Below, one piece after another: positions 38,499-64,000 of a stretch of DNA of 64,000 nt. The translations under genes and the position numbers were made by a program. Numbering within the stretch: position 1 is the stretch's first letter; the number at the start of each line of letters is the position of its first letter. This DNA comes from an uncultured Candidatus Saccharibacteria bacterium. Its GTDB lineage: Bacteria; Patescibacteriota; Saccharimonadia; Saccharimonadales; 2-12-FULL-41-12. The notes beneath the pieces were generated by a model that saw nothing but the letters and a program-made list of their open reading frames with translations, had not been told where the DNA came from and searched no databases. Location: assembly GCA_964521095.1 (NCBI GenBank), contig CAZFPJ010000001.1, positions 38,974 through 102,973 of the forward strand, given 5' to 3'.

Positions 38499-39260
38499 AT
38501 GCGATTTACCGCAGTAGTTGCGGGTGTATTTTTGTTTGCCTTGATTTTGGCAACAGACAAACCGCAGGCGCAAGCCGAAGCAAATATTAACAGTAATATT
38601 CAACTGTCTTCAACCAAGATAGACAATGTTTTGGAAGAGGTTGTTGACGAGGCTAAGCGAGGCGATCAGCCCGCACCAGTGACTGCATCTGCAGAGTACA
38701 CGGTTGTTAACGGGGACACTTTGGCAAAAATAGCCACAGAGCACAACCAAACATGGAAGAGATTATTTGATAAAAATCAGCAAATCACTGATCCCAATAT
38801 CATAACTCCGGGCCAAAAGATTTTGATCCCGAGTAAGGATGAAGTATTGCCCGAACGAGCAGTTCCAGCCTCTGCGCCAGTACAGAGCCAGCCTGTAAGA
38901 GCTCCAAGAAGTAGCGCTACGGTACAGGGCGCACAAGCCCCAACGCAATATAGTCGAGGCGACTCTAGTGGCAATAGGTATTACTACGGATATTGCACCT
39001 GGTATGCCAAACAGAGGCGCCCTGATCTGCCGAATAACCTTGGGGATGCTATTAGCTGGGTGGCTCGAGCCAGAGCTCAGGGTATAGCTACTGGTTCTAC
39101 GCCTAGGGTTGGCGCGGTTGGTCAACAGGGGAACCATGTTGTTTTTGTAGAGGCGGTCAACGCTAACGGCACAGTGACTATTAGCGAGATGAACTATGTC
39201 GGTCGTGGCGTGGTTAACAGCAGAACAGTGCCTGCCGGAACTTTCCAGTACATTTATTAG
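38499..39260 (+). CDS. secreted LysM-CHAP peptidoglycan hydrolase
   Basis: Signal peptide MRFTAVVAGVFLFALILATDKPQAQA; LysM (YTVVNGDTLAKIA...GQKILIP); CHAP Cys/His (GYCTWYAKQ, GNHVVFVEAV, ISEMN); AGGAGG RBS. Confidence 0.85.
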   Translation: MRFTAVVAGVFLFALILATDKPQAQAEANINSNIQLSSTKIDNVLEEVVDEAKRGDQPAPVTASAEYTVVNGDTLAKIATEHNQTWKRLFDKNQQITDPNIITPGQKILIPSKDEVLPERAVPASAPVQSQPVRAPRSSATVQGAQAPTQYSRGDSSGNRYYYGYCTWYAKQRRPDLPNNLGDAISWVARARAQGIATGSTPRVGAVGQQGNHVVFVEAVNANGTVTISEMNYVGRGVVNSRTVPAGTFQYIY

Positions 39261-58257: not shown

Positions 58258-58343
58258 TGGTGCAGGGTGTAGGATTCGAACCTACGAAGGCATAAGCCGA
58301 CAGATTTACAGTCTGTTGTGTTTGACCGCTTCACTAACCCTGC
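58258..58343 (-). tRNA. tRNA-Tyr(GUA), CCA encoded
   Basis: Acceptor GCAGGGT/ACCCTGC, anticodon loop CUGUAAA, long variable arm and T-arm GTAGG-TTCGAAT-CCTAC. Confidence 0.9.
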
Positions 58344-58353
58344 GGAATATATC

Positions 58354-58371
58354 TGGAGCCACCTGTCGGAT
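58354..58371 (-). repeat. orphan copy of the last 18 nt of tRNA-Thr(UGU)
   Basis: TGGAGCCACCTGTCGGAT is identical to 58437-58454. It lies 10 nt upstream of the tRNA-Tyr 5' end on the minus strand. Confidence 0.85.
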
Positions 58372-58436
58372 ATCGCTTACGCTCCTTCCTGCGCTCCTCG
58401 TCCGCCGAACCTTCGGTTCTCATGCCGACGGGCTCG

Positions 58437-58513
58437 TGGAGCCACCTGTCGGATTCGAACCGACGACCCCCTGTTTACAAAACAGGTGCTCTAACCAGCT
58501 GAGCTAAGGTGGC
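58437..58513 (-). tRNA. tRNA-Thr(UGU), CCA encoded
   Basis: Acceptor GCCACCT/AGGTGGC, anticodon loop UUUGUAA and T-arm GTCGG-TTCGAAT-CCGAC. Confidence 0.92.
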
Positions 58514-58545
58514 ACAAACTATTGATTTGTTAATTCTTCTGCTAT

Positions 58546-58559
58546 AGCTGGTTAGAGCA
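58546..58559. repeat. inverted copy of the tRNA-Thr(UGU) D-arm segment
   Basis: AGCTGGTTAGAGCA is the exact reverse complement of 58487-58500, which lies inside the tRNA gene. Confidence 0.8.
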
Positions 58560-58593
58560 AAATACTTATTAATCTATTCTGCAGTAAACTGCG

Positions 58594-58613
58594 CCAGCTG
58601 AGCTAAGGTGGCA
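58594..58613 (-). repeat. orphan copy of the first ~19 nt of tRNA-Thr(UGU)
   Basis: CCAGCTGAGCTAAGGTGGCA is identical to 58495-58514. It lies 100 bp upstream of the gene on the minus strand. Confidence 0.85.
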
Positions 58614-58713
58614 AATTACAGATACAAGTCTATCAAAAAAATGCAAAAATTCCTAATCTGTTCAACTACTTTTTTATAGAGGTAGTTTCTGGTATAGTAA
58701 ATTGCAGTTTGAT

Positions 58714-58788
58714 GCCATCTTAGCTCAGGGGTAGAGCACATCCATGGTAAGGATGGGGTCCCGGGTTCAAATCCCGGAGATGGCTCCA
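58714..58788 (+). tRNA. tRNA-Thr(GGU), CCA encoded
   Basis: Acceptor GCCATCT/AGATGGC, anticodon loop AUGGUAA and T-arm CCGGG-TTCAAAT-CCCGG. Confidence 0.92.
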
Positions 58789-58835
58789 ATTTTAAGTATT
58801 GAAAAAACATAACTAATCTGTTAATATTATAACTT

Positions 58836-59042
58836 ATGGCAAAAAAAGGTGACAAACGAAAATTAGTAGGACTTGTTTCGGAAGAAACAGGGCATAGAAC
58901 CTATTACACAAAAAAGAATGTCCAAAACACTCCGGACAAGCTAGAACTACGCAAGTACGACCCGATCGCTCGCAAGCATGTACTATATGTCGAGACCAAG
59001 AAAAACCTCGGTCGAAACGAAGTCAAGCCTCGCAAAAAGTAA
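58836..59042 (+). CDS. rpmG: 50S ribosomal protein L33 (Cys-free form)
   Basis: 68 aa. RTYYTKKN...[21 protein letters not shown] pattern. No CxxC. Confidence 0.88.
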
Positions 59043-59048
59043 TCAGAC

Positions 59049-59888
59049 CTAGTCTAGCTTGGAAAAAGTCGCTCTAATAGCAACGACGGCATTGCAAAGG
59101 TCAGACAAGGCTTCTGTTTTGTCTTTGTCTGGAGGGCAGATAGCCTGGACTCTGGGTAGATCCCCTGTATCTTCCGATAGAGTAGGTAGTTCAAAATAAG
59201 ATGCCTCGGCTTCGGTTTCGGACCCAAAGTCGCTGGCTGTAACTGTACGCGTAACGCAGTCCATATGGTATGTAGACTCGACTGCACAAAAGCCAGCTCT
59301 CAAGAATATTGCATGATAATAAGTAGCTTCTTGCCCAACTCGTTCTCGGGCTAGCGTACCAGCTTGTTCCAGCAGGCTGTTGATCCGTTCGTCATCGTTT
59401 ATTAGGTCGTCACCCACGAGGTTGTGGTTGCGAGCATCCCACAATATAGAAAACAGCTCTTCGTAACCCTCTTGATCCCCGATTGCCATTGCATCAAAGT
59501 CTATCATTTTTGCCCACTCGGCGTTAAATTGCACTTTTGCGATACCCGGAATCTCTTCATCTGTCTCTTCTAGGTTGACATTGACTGTCAGTATCTCAAC
59601 CTCTGCGTCGCCATTTTTGACCCCAAAACTTTGCTTATAAATAACGGGGGTAATCACTTTGCCATCTTTTGCGTCTTCTAGGTTGGCATAATCTAGGTCA
59701 AAGGTAGACTCTGTTTGCACAAAATACCCTCCCAGCATGTCGCCTCGCTGGCCTATAAAATTATAATGTTTGTCGGTGTATCGGCTGGGGTTTTGGTCGG
59801 GTATACGAGCCTCAATAATACTGCTATGAAGCTTTTCGGTTGCTAGTTGCATCAAGAACTCAATATCTGATTCGGGATACCTGTCCAT
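59049..59888 (-). CDS. hypothetical acidic protein
   Basis: 279 aa from the ATG at 59888. No recognisable domain. Promoter TTGATT-17-TATAAT, with the -10 box ending 6 nt before the ATG. Confidence 0.6.
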   Translation of the reverse strand: MDRYPESDIEFLMQLATEKLHSSIIEARIPDQNPSRYTDKHYNFIGQRGDMLGGYFVQTESTFDLDYANLEDAKDGKVITPVIYKQSFGVKNGDAEVEILTVNVNLEETDEEIPGIAKVQFNAEWAKMIDFDAMAIGDQEGYEELFSILWDARNHNLVGDDLINDDERINSLLEQAGTLARERVGQEATYYHAIFLRAGFCAVESTYHMDCVTRTVTASDFGSETEAEASYFELPTLSEDTGDLPRVQAICPPDKDKTEALSDLCNAVVAIRATFSKLD

Positions 59889-59894
59889 TAGTAT

Positions 59895-59923
59895 ATTATA
59901 GCACAACCAATAAAATTAATCAA
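59895..59923 (-). promoter_or_regulatory. promoter implying a leaderless mRNA
   Basis: On the minus strand: TTGATT (59923-59918), 17-nt spacer, TATAAT (59900-59895), then ATACTA and the ATG. Confidence 0.55.
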
Positions 59924-60324: not shown

Positions 60325-60672
60325 TTACAGTGATTCAAGAAACTGTTTTAATACAACCGCGTGGTTTGCTTTGGGGTCTTTTGCTCCGTACAGTAGCGTC
60401 AGTCTGTCATTGCCTTTTACTCGGTCGAGTAGTTTTTGAGGCTCGGCGCTGGTTGTTAGCTCGCTTTGGTACTGCATGGCAAACTCTTCAAATCTTGCTG
60501 GATCGTGGCCAAACCAACGGCGCAGATCGGTGCTCGGCGCTACAGCTTTGCACCACTCATCAAGCGTTGCCACCTCTTTTTTGACGCCACGGGGCCACAA
60601 ACGATCAACTAGTACACGATACCCATCATCTCCGGTGGGCTTATCGTAAACGCGCTTAACAACTATATCCAT
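60325..60672 (-). CDS. DUF488 (YeaO-like) family protein
   Basis: MDIVVKRVYDKPTGDDGYRVLVDRLWPRGVKKE...WCKAVAPSTDLRRWFGHDP is the typical DUF488 signature. The ATG at 60672 is preferred. Confidence 0.85.
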   Translation of the reverse strand: MDIVVKRVYDKPTGDDGYRVLVDRLWPRGVKKEVATLDEWCKAVAPSTDLRRWFGHDPARFEEFAMQYQSELTTSAEPQKLLDRVKGNDRLTLLYGAKDPKANHAVVLKQFLESL

Positions 60673-60770
60673 ACTAACTAGTATACTCCCCATGTTCGCA
60701 AAAGTTCTCCGCATACTAAAGCAAATAACTAGCACGCAGGGCTCGATGAAGATGTTTTATTTAGGCCCTC

Positions 60771-61145
60771 TCATTTAGTATATTTTTTAATTCGCGAGCT
60801 GTCTTCACGGCTTTTGTTGTTTTTTGAATACAGCTCAACAAGTAGGATCTTATCGTTTTGGCGAATTGCGACAAACACGATGCGTAGTTTTTGGCGGTAT
60901 TGTGGCGAGTCGGTATCAAGACGCATTTTGATTATCTCGATCTCATCGGTCGACCCAGGCAATATGGCAGCTTTTTTGCTAGCAAAAAACTGTTTGCGGT
61001 ATTCCGCCAGATTATACTCTGGCGATTTTATGTATAGCGCCTCTACCTTCGAACGCACACGCTTAACATCTGACTGTATAGTCGGTACGCGCTTGGCTAG
61101 TGCTTTGATATCTTTTTTGAATTCTGGTGTCTGCTCAAAGTTCAT
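60771..61145 (-). CDS. putative toxin, RelE/ParE-superfamily-like
   Basis: 124 aa. Overlaps the upstream antitoxin-like gene by 11 nt. C-terminal LRIVFVAIRQNDKILLVELYSKNNKSRED resembles RelE/HigB-type toxins. Confidence 0.6.
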   Translation of the reverse strand: MNFEQTPEFKKDIKALAKRVPTIQSDVKRVRSKVEALYIKSPEYNLAEYRKQFFASKKAAILPGSTDEIEIIKMRLDTDSPQYRQKLRIVFVAIRQNDKILLVELYSKNNKSREDSSRIKKYTK

Positions 61146-61923
61146 CGTCCGGCTCGGTCACGGCGGTAGCAGTAGTTCGGTAAAAGGTATCGCGGTAATC
61201 AATCGGCTGGCCCTGCTTGGCCACAACCCACGGCGTGTCCTGGTGTGACAGCTCACTTAGTTCACTGGCAGACTTGTCACCCAGCTCGGCCAATGTGTTA
61301 TCAATATGGCGCAGCTCATCTGCTCCTAGCTCACTTAGTGTCGTCGTCTTGAGCGGTAGATACTTCCTCTGTATTTTTTTGAAAAACTGAGTCTCTACAA
61401 TCTCTAGCTCATGGGCAGATTCCATTCCTTTGACTACCGAGCGAAAGTCGGCTACTGGCGACGGTCCGTATTTGTTGTGAATATATGTCAGGCCGGTGAT
61501 GCTGTGGCCTGTCTTTTCGTAATAATTGAAGTCGATGAAATAAAGTAGCTTATACAGCACCGTCTCGCCGACATTTGGTTTGGCGCCGACCTTGCCAAGG
61601 ATATATAGCAACACTTGGCGGAGCTTTTCGGGCTGAAACTCTGGTGCGATATCTCGTGGAATAATCTCTGCTGTGGCAGTTCGCCGGTATTCCGCCACTG
61701 GCTCGTGGACACTGTCCATCGTACCGATATCGCCACTAATCAAATCCTCAATTCTTACACCGTAGTATTTACTAATCTGCTGCGCAACCTCGAGGTTTAG
61801 AGGACGCTTGCCAGTTTCGATACTGGCGTAGGTAGCACGAGCAATACCGATACCACTAGCAGCATCAGCCTGGCTCACGCCGGCCCTATTTCGTAGTTCT
61901 CGTATCGTCTTGGCTGTATTCAT
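61135..61923 (-). CDS. XRE-HTH + DUF4065 (Panacea/SocA-like) antitoxin
   Basis: N-terminal HTH (IRELRNRAGVSQADAASGIGIARATYASIETGKR) and a DUF4065 core (VLYKLLYFIDFNYYEKTGHSITGLTYIHNKYGPSP). The ATG at 61923 lies downstream of the promoter. Confidence 0.8.
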   Translation of the reverse strand: MNTAKTIRELRNRAGVSQADAASGIGIARATYASIETGKRPLNLEVAQQISKYYGVRIEDLISGDIGTMDSVHEPVAEYRRTATAEIIPRDIAPEFQPEKLRQVLLYILGKVGAKPNVGETVLYKLLYFIDFNYYEKTGHSITGLTYIHNKYGPSPVADFRSVVKGMESAHELEIVETQFFKKIQRKYLPLKTTTLSELGADELRHIDNTLAELGDKSASELSELSHQDTPWVVAKQGQPIDYRDTFYRTTATAVTEPDDEL

Positions 61924-61957
61924 AATGCTTGCCCACTGATTATGCTTTAATGACTTC

Positions 61958-61986
61958 ATTGTAGCTAACTCTACAAAATTAGTCAA
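61958..61986 (-). promoter_or_regulatory. promoter of the toxin-antitoxin operon
   Basis: On the minus strand: TTGACT (61986-61981), 17-nt spacer, TACAAT (61963-61958). The TTG start in the ORF track is the -35 box. Confidence 0.6.
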
Positions 61987-62177
61987 TCATACTGATACAA
62001 TGAATTTATTTTGACGCTCACCTGGCTGTTCATGAGCATGGGGAGGAGCCAGTCGCGGAGGCGAGAGAGGTTTTGAGATTGTTGGCGGTTGCGGTCGATT
62101 TCTACATATTGCGCCTTATTCTCTATTATATAGCAAGATAATCTAGGTAACCATCAATTGTACCATCTTCTTTTGGG

Positions 62178-62849
62178 TTATAAATAACCTTTCTCCGATA
62201 GCTTTGTGTACTCGGAGCTTGAAACTATAAGGTGATCTATGACATCTATTCCCATAATCTTGCCCGATTCAACTAATTTTCTAGTTGTGTAGATATCCTC
62301 TTCTGATGGTGTGGTGTCTCCTGATGGGTGATTGTGGGCTATAACGATGCCGGCAGCGTTGTTGTCCAGAGCAATTCTGAAAACCTCACGCGGCTCGACT
62401 ACTGATATGTCTAGCGCTCCGATTGAAACTATCTCACTAATTACGGATCCCTTTGTATTAATGCAGATAACTTTGAATATTTCCTTTTTCTCATACCCGA
62501 TTTCTTTTATAAGCAGATCGGCTACCTTTTCAATGTTGATGAATTCTGTTTTAGCTGAACTTAAATTATTTTTACCCGATAATATTCCCAGTTCTCTAGC
62601 TAGTTTAATACCGAAAATACTTGATTTCCCCAGTCCCTTTATCTTCATTAGGTCGATATCGCTGGCATTTATAGTCCCGTTAGCTGTTCTGAATCTTGCA
62701 ATTAACTCTTTTGCAAGTGGCTTGCAGTCTTTTCTAGGGATGCCGATGGTCAATAGCAACTCTATGATCTCATAGTCTAAAAATCCGGCGAGACCGTTAT
62801 TTAGAAACTTTTCTCGTAATCGCTTGCGATGGCCGTCATGATCAGCCAT
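62178..62849 (-). CDS. radC: RadC-family JAB/MPN domain protein
   Basis: N-terminal HhH-like region (LREKFLNNGLAGFLDYEIIELLL) and a JAMM motif (HNHPSGDTTPSEED). The ATG at 62849 lies 2 nt after the upstream stop. Confidence 0.88.
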   Translation of the reverse strand: MADHDGHRKRLREKFLNNGLAGFLDYEIIELLLTIGIPRKDCKPLAKELIARFRTANGTINASDIDLMKIKGLGKSSIFGIKLARELGILSGKNNLSSAKTEFINIEKVADLLIKEIGYEKKEIFKVICINTKGSVISEIVSIGALDISVVEPREVFRIALDNNAAGIVIAHNHPSGDTTPSEEDIYTTRKLVESGKIMGIDVIDHLIVSSSEYTKLSEKGYL

Positions 62850-62851
62850 GA

Positions 62852-64000
62852 TTATTGTCTTCTTAGTCTCTTTTTGAAATATTCTTGCGTTTCGGGATCT
62901 GTACAATAAATAAAACACCCCTTCATGCCACGAGACATAAGTACTCTATATGTATTCTTTATTATCATATTTTCCATAATATCTGCTCTTGCAGGATCCT
63001 CACGACTAAGTTTTTTAAACCCAAAAATAGACTTATCTGTAGTTGCCCTTTTCGATATGTCTGTGAACATCTTTCCTTCCCTGACACTAAGGTCATCACC
63101 AATGATTACTCCTACATAATCTAGCTCGAGACCTTGGCATGTATGGACGCAGCCAACTTCAGTTACGGATTCGGCGTGCACTATCCATGATTGTCCTTGC
63201 TCATTCAAGTTCCATCGAGCTTTATAGCTGTTTATTTCGATATCAAAGAGCTCAGGATTTTTCTTACTAATCCAATTCCAGCAATACCCAGCGAGCATAC
63301 GTGACTTATTGTTGTGCAAATTCTTCCCTTTGATTAATTCATGCATTTCTGAGGGATCATCTATAACACGAAAATCATAATCGATATCATCCAGAGTGGT
63401 GTTCGCGGTATCCCTTATTTGGAGCGCATCATCAAGCCATGCTAAATAGCCGTCTGATCCATTGCATCTAAACTGAGATTCAAGCTCATATTCACAGTAA
63501 TCTGCCTCAAAAGATTCTGCCCATTGCTTGATTACATCAACTTCGCCGATATCCTTCAGTGTTACTCTCTGATCTTCGTCAATAAAGAATATAGTGGTTT
63601 TTGCTGAATTAATTAATTCTTTAATTTGATTTTCGCCTTTGTTGTTGAATAATCCAGACCTTTCATTTAGACGCTGTGCTTCATCGACTATCAAAGCGTC
63701 GAATGTGTTTGATTCTGTTTCAGTGAATGAGCCAGAGGAGGTAAAAAGGTTAGATATTCTCGACTTTGTAAATTTACCCGTAAGCATTACCTGAAAAACC
63801 TCTCGAGGGGCAGAATTTCTCGTCACATAGTGCGTAACAAGCCCTTGTTTTGTAATTTCAGAGAGTAGGTTAATGGCAACTACCGATTTCCCGGTCCCTG
63901 GGCCGCCCTTTACTACAACAACATTTTTTACACTAGATTGTGACTTTTGTGTAAGATTCAGAGCTGTTTCATAAACAATTTTCTGAGTATCTATCAATGT
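62852..64000 (-). CDS. DUF2075-family P-loop NTPase (SF1-helicase-like), 5' end outside the window
   Basis: Walker A GGPGTGKS, Walker B ALIVDEAQRL, and the VHTCQGLELDYVGVIIG and RVLMSRGMKG blocks. The reading frame stays open to the window edge. Confidence 0.8.
   Translation of the reverse strand, partial: TLIDTQKIVYETALNLTQKSQSSVKNVVVVKGGPGTGKSVVAINLLSEITKQGLVTHYVTRNSAPREVFQVMLTGKFTKSRISNLFTSSGSFTETESNTFDALIVDEAQRLNERSGLFNNKGENQIKELINSAKTTIFFIDEDQRVTLKDIGEVDVIKQWAESFEADYCEYELESQFRCNGSDGYLAWLDDALQIRDTANTTLDDIDYDFRVIDDPSEMHELIKGKNLHNNKSRMLAGYCWNWISKKNPELFDIEINSYKARWNLNEQGQSWIVHAESVTEVGCVHTCQGLELDYVGVIIGDDLSVREGKMFTDISKRATTDKSIFGFKKLSREDPARADIMENMIIKNTYRVLMSRGMKGCFIYCTDPETQEYFKKRLRRQ

Follow-up and report, generated by a model that had tools for sequence, protein, structure and literature searches.

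A two-gene PanAT toxin–antitoxin cassette with a predicted HigB2-like toxin in an uncultured Saccharibacteria genome

The window analyzed here is the whole 64,000-nucleotide (nt) stretch between positions 38,974 and 102,973 of contig CAZFPJ010000001.1, from an uncultured Candidatus Saccharibacteria bacterium (assembly GCA_964521095.1). On its minus strand, positions 60771–61986 hold a two-gene toxin–antitoxin (TA) cassette in which a Panacea antitoxin (PanA) is followed by a toxin of the RelE/HigB2 type (PanT), and the pairing of the two genes is real. The panA gene (61135..61923, minus strand) encodes 262 amino acids (aa) plus stop, arranged as an XRE-type helix-turn-helix (HTH), a flexible linker, a Panacea domain, and a conserved C-terminal tail. 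The panT gene (60771..61145, minus strand; 124 aa plus stop, ATG start) encodes a RelE/ParE-fold protein closest to HigB-2. A sequence-only reading of the window had proposed a PanA-type TA module at this site, with an XRE-HTH/DUF4065 antitoxin of 262 aa, a RelE-like toxin whose gene overlaps the antitoxin gene by 11 nt, and a TTGACT-17-TACAAT promoter upstream. The peptides it cited are found in both minus-strand open reading frames (ORFs), and the overlap and the promoter are both present.

The long ORF upstream of the toxin runs from a TTG at 61986 (61135..61986, 283 aa), a start that was rejected because this TTG belongs to the −35 hexamer and homologues start 21 codons later. In approximately 70 loci the PanA homologues invariably open with M[NTD]F..TIR.LR, just a few residues ahead of the HTH; together with the −35 assignment of the TTG, this places the true panA start at ATG 61923. 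Two domains of the resulting protein are matched by Pfam well above the respective cut-offs: HTH_3 at residues 7–61 (61741..61905, minus strand; E 4e-14, 52.8 bits against a cut-off of 23) and SocA_Panacea, PF13274 (DUF4065), at residues 123–232 (61228..61557, minus strand; E 5.6e-19, 69.6 bits against 25.7, covering model positions 1–112 of 113). PanA has upward of 4,000 protein matches at E ≤ 1e-10, and in PADLOC it is matched by generic HTH models only. An AlphaFold model built on 48 homologues divides the protein into an HTH domain (residues 1–63, predicted local distance difference test score (pLDDT) ∼85), a disordered linker (64–97), a folded Panacea core (98–228, pLDDT 72–93), and a disordered end (229–262, pLDDT 33–44). 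The HTH superposes on DdrO, P22 c2, C.AhdI, and C.BclI with a root-mean-square deviation (rmsd) of 1.0–1.4 Å over approximately 60 residues, and Foldseek matched no solved structure in the PDB to the Panacea part.

The sequence-only reading had called for a structure prediction of the 124-aa protein, and AlphaFold models it with confidence (pLDDT 91.1, predicted TM-score (pTM) 0.82). The modeled topology is β1, α1, α2, an extra helix and short strand (∼38–62), β2, β3, β4, and a C-terminal helix, and the insert at 38–62 is best regarded as a subfamily elaboration because it is gapped in about half of the broader family. RelE-superfamily mRNases are among the top Foldseek matches in the PDB, including Helicobacter pylori HP0894 (4lsy, probability 1.00, TMt 0.67), YafQ (4ml0/4q2u, 0.98), and HigB2 (8a0x, 0.92), along with the Cami1 RelE domain, Mtb HigB1, and RelE1; matches within the superfamily span probabilities of 0.66–1.00, and the five mRNases other than RelE1 have probabilities of 0.85–1.00 with E-values of 5e-3 to 0.14. 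An indexed search returned 15 close relatives of the toxin, and an exhaustive profile search returned 376 clusters at 50% identity (E ≤ 0.001). When a profile of 106 family sequences was compared with solved structures, HigB-2 was the best match (E 0.016), and hhalign of the toxin family against HigB-2 (a PF06296 member, used here as the sequence identical to PDB 5ja9_C) gave a probability of 84% and a pairwise E of 7e-6. The 106 relatives themselves reach Pfam toxin families at sub-threshold scores only, most often PF06296 (nine members, best E 0.0022), followed by PF05016 (three) and PF15738 (two). A search of the single toxin sequence against PDB sequences returned noise only. A match of the 15-sequence profile to mitochondrial L1 (E 0.01, N-terminal helices) was rejected as low-complexity helical similarity.

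The predicted active site lies on the β2–β4 face, within codons 73–108 (60822..60929, minus strand). Mutagenesis of HigB2 has identified R51, R64, Y82, and K84 as residues needed for activity (PMC5416850), and the profile alignment pairs them with R75, R88, Y106, and K108 of the toxin. All four are well conserved among the 106 family members: position 75 (β2) is Arg in 90 and Lys in 12, R88 (β3) is present in 105, position 106 (β4) is Tyr in 86 and Phe in 20, and K108 (β4) is present in 99. Two further positions are nearly invariant, K73 in β2 (105 of 106) and E104 in β4 (103 of 106). Judging from strand periodicity, K73 and R75 in β2 and E104, Y106, and K108 in β4, each spaced by two, should lie on one face of the sheet.

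The strict association of the two genes extends well beyond the window. Scanning species-representative genomes with the 15-sequence toxin alignment identified 76 loci, nearly all in Saccharibacteria, with a few in other lineages of the candidate phyla radiation (CPR), Actinomycetota, and Bacteroidota; eight metagenomic loci bring the total to 84. In 79 of these 84, a panA homologue immediately precedes the toxin gene and overlaps it by 11 nt, and the five exceptions are all cut by contig ends. The remark in the sequence-only reading that TA modules are sparse in CPR genomes does not hold for this module, which is common there and present in two copies in some genomes.

Expression of the pair appears to be organized by a compact upstream region and by the gene overlap. 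A sigma-70-type promoter (61958..61986, minus strand) comprises the −35 hexamer TTGACT (61986–61981), a 17-nt spacer, and the −10 hexamer TACAAT (61963–61958); 10 of its 12 positions agree with the consensus, and no other site in the 2.2 kb scanned does better. As a single site it proves little, since that scan found six sites against 3.2 ± 1.9 in shuffled sequence. Among 55 distinct homologous upstream regions, TTGAC[TA]-17-TAnAnT recurs in most, usually 51–66 nt before the panA ATG (range 35–76), a recurrence that chance does not explain. The spacer itself is conserved as AAAwTTGTAGmATwwGC across diverged loci whose surrounding DNA is unrelated, which suggests a constraint beyond what a promoter requires. 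Within it, overlapping the −10 box, a palindrome read from the sequence, TTGTAG-N6-CTACAA (61959..61976, minus strand), is a candidate operator that would fit autorepression by a dimeric XRE HTH; the assignment is tentative because the strict palindrome occurs in a minority of loci. A longer inverted repeat surrounds the promoter, AATAAATTCATTGTA ... TACAATGAAGTCATT (61949..62010, minus strand), with 15-nt arms that are 87% complementary, 32 nt between them, and a 9-nt perfect core, TTCATTGTA/TACAATGAA; it is seen in the window alone and is therefore weaker evidence than the conserved spacer. At the other end of panA, the 11-nt overlap ATGAACTTTGA (61135..61145, minus strand) sets the toxin ATG within the last antitoxin codons (..D E L stop), an arrangement that implies translational coupling, and in 70 of 72 pairs the toxin likewise starts with ATG.

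The C-terminal tail of PanA (residues 233–262, VVAKQGQPIDYRDTFYRTTATAVTEPDDEL; 61138..61227, minus strand) combines predicted disorder with strong conservation. Regional conservation scores computed over 27 diverse PanA–toxin pairs are 0.35 for the PanA linker, 0.54 for the toxin, 0.62 for the HTH, 0.71 for the tail, and 0.73 for the Panacea core, and the tail still scores 0.69 when the four codons that overlap the toxin gene are removed. In 48 close homologues there is no variation at residues G238, Y243, R244, Y248, R249, T253, V255, E257, and L262. A segment that is predicted to be disordered on its own, yet is conserved like a folded core, is typical of a neutralizing region that folds upon binding, and the tail is accordingly named here as a candidate for that role.

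Taken together, we estimate a probability of about three in four that the locus is a chromosomal type II PanAT operon, autoregulated through the HTH, in which the toxin is a ribosome-dependent mRNase probably neutralized by the PanA tail. The observations beneath this reading are the domain hits, the fold model, the remote homology to HigB-2 with its active-site equivalents and residue conservation, the strict pairing across differing contexts, and the conservation of the promoter, and they bear out the proposal of a PanA-type module with an HTH–Panacea antitoxin and an overlapping RelE-fold toxin. In such an operon, one sigma-70-type promoter would drive panA and then panT, and the PanA HTH would most likely bind the palindrome inside that promoter and repress transcription. 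The 11-nt overlap would tie translation of the toxin to translation of the antitoxin, which probably also limits it. The toxin would be a HigB-2-like protein with a helical insert between α2 and β2, the four HigB2 active-site equivalents, and a near-invariant Glu104. While antitoxin is present, the PanA tail would fold onto the toxin and neutralize it, in the manner of the disordered HigA2 and RelB segments or of the Phd-C extension in another PanA, with the Panacea domain serving as a scaffold, a sensor, or a second toxin contact. Toxin freed from PanA would most likely enter the ribosomal A site, cleave translating mRNA, and arrest growth.

Several observations weigh against this understanding. 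First, the 124-aa toxin has no match in Pfam, NCBIfam, or PADLOC, and PHROGs returned nothing usable, so that the earlier description of it as RelE-like stands on fold and profile evidence and finds no counterpart among curated models. Second, its Foldseek matches are marginal (E 5e-3 to 0.4, TM-scores 0.35–0.67, rmsd 4.6–8.8 Å), as is the profile match (hmmsearch E 0.016), and the aligned region is confined to the C-terminal 50–55 residues. Third, Tyr106 is replaced by Phe in 19% of the family, and the corresponding Y82A substitution costs HigB2 1200-fold in activity. Proteins of the RelE/ParE fold can also be gyrase poisons instead of RNases, and the fold alone is indecisive on this point. 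On the regulatory side, the strict form GTAG-N4-8-CTA[CT] is found in only eight of the 55 upstream regions, with seven more showing the reverse arrangement. Tail conservation could stem in part from packing against the Panacea domain that AlphaFold missed. Finally, in the published catalogue of Panacea systems every member of the toxin group most like this one, T14, is marked 'notest' and the group receives no discussion in the main text, and several predicted PanTs proved non-toxic in Escherichia coli (Kurata et al., 2022; PMC8832971).

The wider distribution of the pair bears on how it spreads and what it may be for. Flanking genes fall into 106 clusters, four of them from one 42-genome syntenic clade and almost all others singletons, and because the flanks differ nearly everywhere outside that clade, the PanA–toxin pair moves as a unit. 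Recurrent neighbors of the module include Zeta toxin, Fic/Doc, RhuM, and GmrSD, together with ordinary housekeeping genes. Within the clade, approximately 42 loci (L012–L055, from species-level Saccharibacteria metagenome-assembled genomes (MAGs)) occupy one syntenic site with a group-1 glycosyltransferase downstream; identity is 97% for PanA, 95% for the toxin, and 89–97% for the flanks, values that fit long vertical inheritance with both genes intact. A tblastn search recovered no copies of the toxin from 50,697 phage or 72,556 plasmid records.

Individual loci add some variety to this picture. One MAG, JABCZM01, carries two diverged copies of the module (L011 and L071). In L077 (2192–3380; CP064992.1, a complete Saccharibacteria genome) and L080 (2216–3216; a Thermoleophilia MAG), panA and the toxin gene are each broken into several reading frames, and these are either decaying copies or assembly errors. 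In L078, a second HTH–Panacea gene, confirmed by Pfam, overlaps a 140-aa ORF by 26 nt (252–1383) and lies approximately 0.4 kb upstream of the HigB2-like module, so that two PanAT-like cassettes stand in tandem; the 140-aa protein has no Pfam match and an hhalign probability of 23% to the toxin family.

One account of the biological role, compatible with the PanAT reading since it concerns role and not biochemistry, is that the pair acts mainly in abortive-infection phage defense, with the Panacea domain sensing a phage cue and releasing the toxin. A sensor function for Panacea has been put forward in the literature (Ernits et al., 2023; PMC10440598), and the genes beside the module, here and at other loci, are in keeping with defense; they include RadC, GmrSD, and RhuM as well as a DUF2075/SLFN helicase weakly similar to AbiO/Nhi, an Eco57I/ResIII enzyme, and an SLFN AlbA_2 ATPase. 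Set against this, neither protein is matched by a specific PADLOC defense model (the toxin by none, PanA by the generic HTH models), the phage and plasmid records searched hold no toxin copies, many flanking genes are housekeeping (MraW, SRP54, PCRF, ATP synthase), and the 42-genome clade looks vertically inherited. We regard a primarily anti-phage role as possible but doubtful, with addiction as the other role to be considered.

A second alternative concerns which part of PanA holds the toxin. The folded Panacea domain might itself neutralize, with the tail being simply the end of that domain or a segment constrained by the gene overlap. Panacea does neutralize directly in single-domain PanAs, for example that of B. 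choladocola (PMC10440598). The Pfam model extends to residue 232, the H-x-D-x-P-W motif at 227–232 is invariant, and the final four tail codons double as the start of the toxin gene. Yet the tail keeps its high score once those overlapped codons are left out, and AlphaFold predicts it to be disordered next to a confidently folded core. Moreover, all multidomain PanAs dissected to date neutralize through an appended element (Phd-C, PAD1, or a zinc-binding domain (ZBD)), Panacea being proposed as the sensor, and HTH–Panacea alone failed to neutralize the RelE-related MqsR (PMC10440598); the division of labor that we suggest between tail and Panacea draws its support from these dissections. The paralogous HTH-PanA of L078, which precedes a different downstream ORF, has a different tail, as would be consistent with a partner-specific tail, in a single case. 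Neutralization by the Panacea domain itself thus seems unlikely to us in the four-part PanA of the window.

A more specific version of the PanAT reading can be offered as possible but less likely than not: that the 30-residue disordered, near-invariant tail (..IDYRDTFYRTxxTAVTEPxDEL), and not Panacea, holds the toxin by folding onto a HigB2-like mRNase, that Panacea senses the trigger, and that syntenic retention reflects a selected role. If this were true, the stable presence of an intact toxin in approximately 40 species-level genomes of oral Saccharibacteria, which are genome-reduced and host-dependent, would point beyond addiction to a role such as phage defense or the control of growth in episymbiosis.

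The remaining alternatives concern the toxin gene. The small ORF might encode no toxin at all, serving as a co-regulator or inert partner of an XRE/Panacea transcription factor, as the missing curated toxin model and the non-toxic PanTs mentioned above would allow. The modeled RelE fold, its active-site face with conserved basic and aromatic residues, the obligate order of antitoxin before toxin with translational coupling in approximately 80 loci, and a published HHpred probability of 99.7% for T14 to HigB-2 make this very unlikely. ParE proteins are not known to carry the four-residue set of HigB2. A ParE-type gyrase poison in the same architecture is highly improbable: the common fold of RelE and ParE, weak ParE_toxin matches in three family members (best E 0.022), a ParDE chimera far down the Foldseek list (probability 0.23), and the listing of ParE domains among PanTs by Kurata et al. 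are outweighed by best-ranked superfamily structural matches that are all RNases (HigB2, HP0894, YafQ, HigB1, Cami1), by a family profile that reaches no superfamily member other than HigB-2, and by conservation on the sheet face of counterparts to the four catalytic and mRNA-binding residues of HigB2.

The neighbors named in the sequence-only reading, DUF488, RadC, and a DUF2075 (SLFN-g3) helicase, are all confirmed. Upstream of the cassette, a RadC-like JAB protein and the SLFN-g3/DUF2075 helicase occupy 62178–63997 on the minus strand, the helicase ORF running to the end of the window; PADLOC matches the helicase weakly to AbiO, Nhi, and PDC-S41. GC content is 0.37–0.40 over this segment and 0.45–0.49 over the TA genes, and because of this difference the segment looks like a separately acquired accessory or defense block. 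Between it and the panA promoter lies a short dead-end reading frame (62026–62130, minus strand) that ends in ..NLSRLRDWLLPMLMNSQVSVK*. It is a putative remnant of a type I restriction–modification HsdS subunit, whose C-terminus it resembles and which would suggest a decayed restriction–modification gene; Pfam has no match to the 48-aa fragment. Directly downstream of the toxin, a DUF488 protein (60325–60735, minus strand) is best matched by the Pfam model 'inactive DUF488-N3i subclade' (E 6.4e-39); it was considered as a third component of the module and rejected, since the downstream genes differ in other loci. Further downstream, approximately 2 kb from the module, a cluster at 58258–59042 holds a tRNA-Tyr gene, two tRNA-Thr genes, and a 68-aa ORF that we presume to be ribosomal protein L33, and between this cluster and the module are a 285-aa acidic protein (59049–59906, no Pfam match) and a 95-aa predicted membrane protein.

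By itself, replacing a 'hypothetical' gene and an 'XRE regulator' gene with an annotated PanAT pair that includes a HigB2-like toxin is routine annotation, and the wider value of the finding is modest. The survey does show that Saccharibacteria commonly carry the PanAT pair as a mobile cassette, in some cases duplicated. The one point of the PanAT family that we consider worth following up is the candidate tail as the likely neutralizing element, and with a four-part PanA, a disordered tail that is strongly conserved, and over 60 naturally paired sequences, the family is a convenient system for asking which element neutralizes and which senses the trigger.

Comparison with known systems places the pair most closely among the Panacea antitoxins described by Kurata et al. 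(2022, PNAS; PMC8832971). That study reported N-terminal HTH domains in 343 PanAs and already catalogued PanTs with similarity to RelE/ParE or HigB-2; in its Dataset S1, the representative of group T14/pT15 has an HHpred match to HigB-2 at 99.73%. Members of T14 come from Methanobacteria, Cryosericota, Bacteroidetes, and two Saccharibacteria, Ca. Saccharimonas aalborgensis and the oral isolate TM7 HOT_356, and both Saccharibacteria entries have an HTH-PanA, antitoxin-then-toxin order, and a −11 overlap (PMC8832971). Like the window pair, T14 thus joins a Panacea antitoxin carrying an N-terminal HTH, placed first, to a small unannotated HigB-2-like toxin, and it spans archaea, Cryosericota, Saccharibacteria, and Bacteroidetes much as the window's toxin family is broad. 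Because phylum, HTH-PanA, gene order, −11 overlap, and HigB-2 assignment all match, the window pair is almost certainly a T14 member by these listed traits, the comparison being by description only, and the new PanT class suggested in the sequence-only reading is unlikely. The kind of PanAT in the window was therefore already catalogued in 2022; the conserved tail, the promoter, and the candidate operator of its family are not in the T14 catalogue and are described here in addition.

Among characterized toxins, the nearest relative is that of Vibrio cholerae HigB2–HigA2 (5ja9, 8a0x; PF06296), which shares with the window toxin a RelE-type fold with a C-terminal helix and, as set out above, equivalents of R51, R64, Y82, and K84. 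HigA2 likewise combines an XRE HTH with a disordered neutralizing segment, for which the PanA tail is a candidate counterpart. The two systems differ in that higBA modules are toxin-first, whereas the window and all 79 paired loci are antitoxin-first, and since the gene order is opposite the window locus is not a higBA module. They differ further in that the window antitoxin carries a Panacea domain and a candidate neutralizing segment at its C-terminus, where that of HigA2 is N-terminal, and in that the window toxin has an insert of approximately 25 residues (38–62), a near-invariant Glu104, and a similarity to PF06296 that falls below threshold.

In overall architecture, the window pair resembles MqsR:PanA of Bacillus fungorum (Ernits et al., 2023; PMC10440598), in which a RelE-superfamily mRNase is likewise paired with a multidomain, HTH-containing PanA. 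That system has been validated experimentally, and Panacea is not its neutralizing element. Its antitoxin is a ZBD–HTH–Panacea protein that neutralizes through the zinc-binding domain, whereas the window PanA lacks a ZBD and has the conserved C-terminal tail instead; the toxins also belong to different subfamilies, MqsR in B. fungorum and HigB2-like in the window. More distantly, E. coli RelBE and DinJ-YafQ and H. pylori HP0894-HP0895 are ribosome-dependent mRNase systems whose toxins share the fold of the window toxin, and in all three a disordered antitoxin segment neutralizes and the operon promoter is autoregulated (mechanism: PMC5416850). Unlike the window PanA, their antitoxins are of the ribbon-helix-helix type and carry neither HTH nor Panacea, and whereas YafQ and HP0894 rely on His-based catalysis, the window toxin family presents an Arg/Lys/Tyr set together with a Glu.

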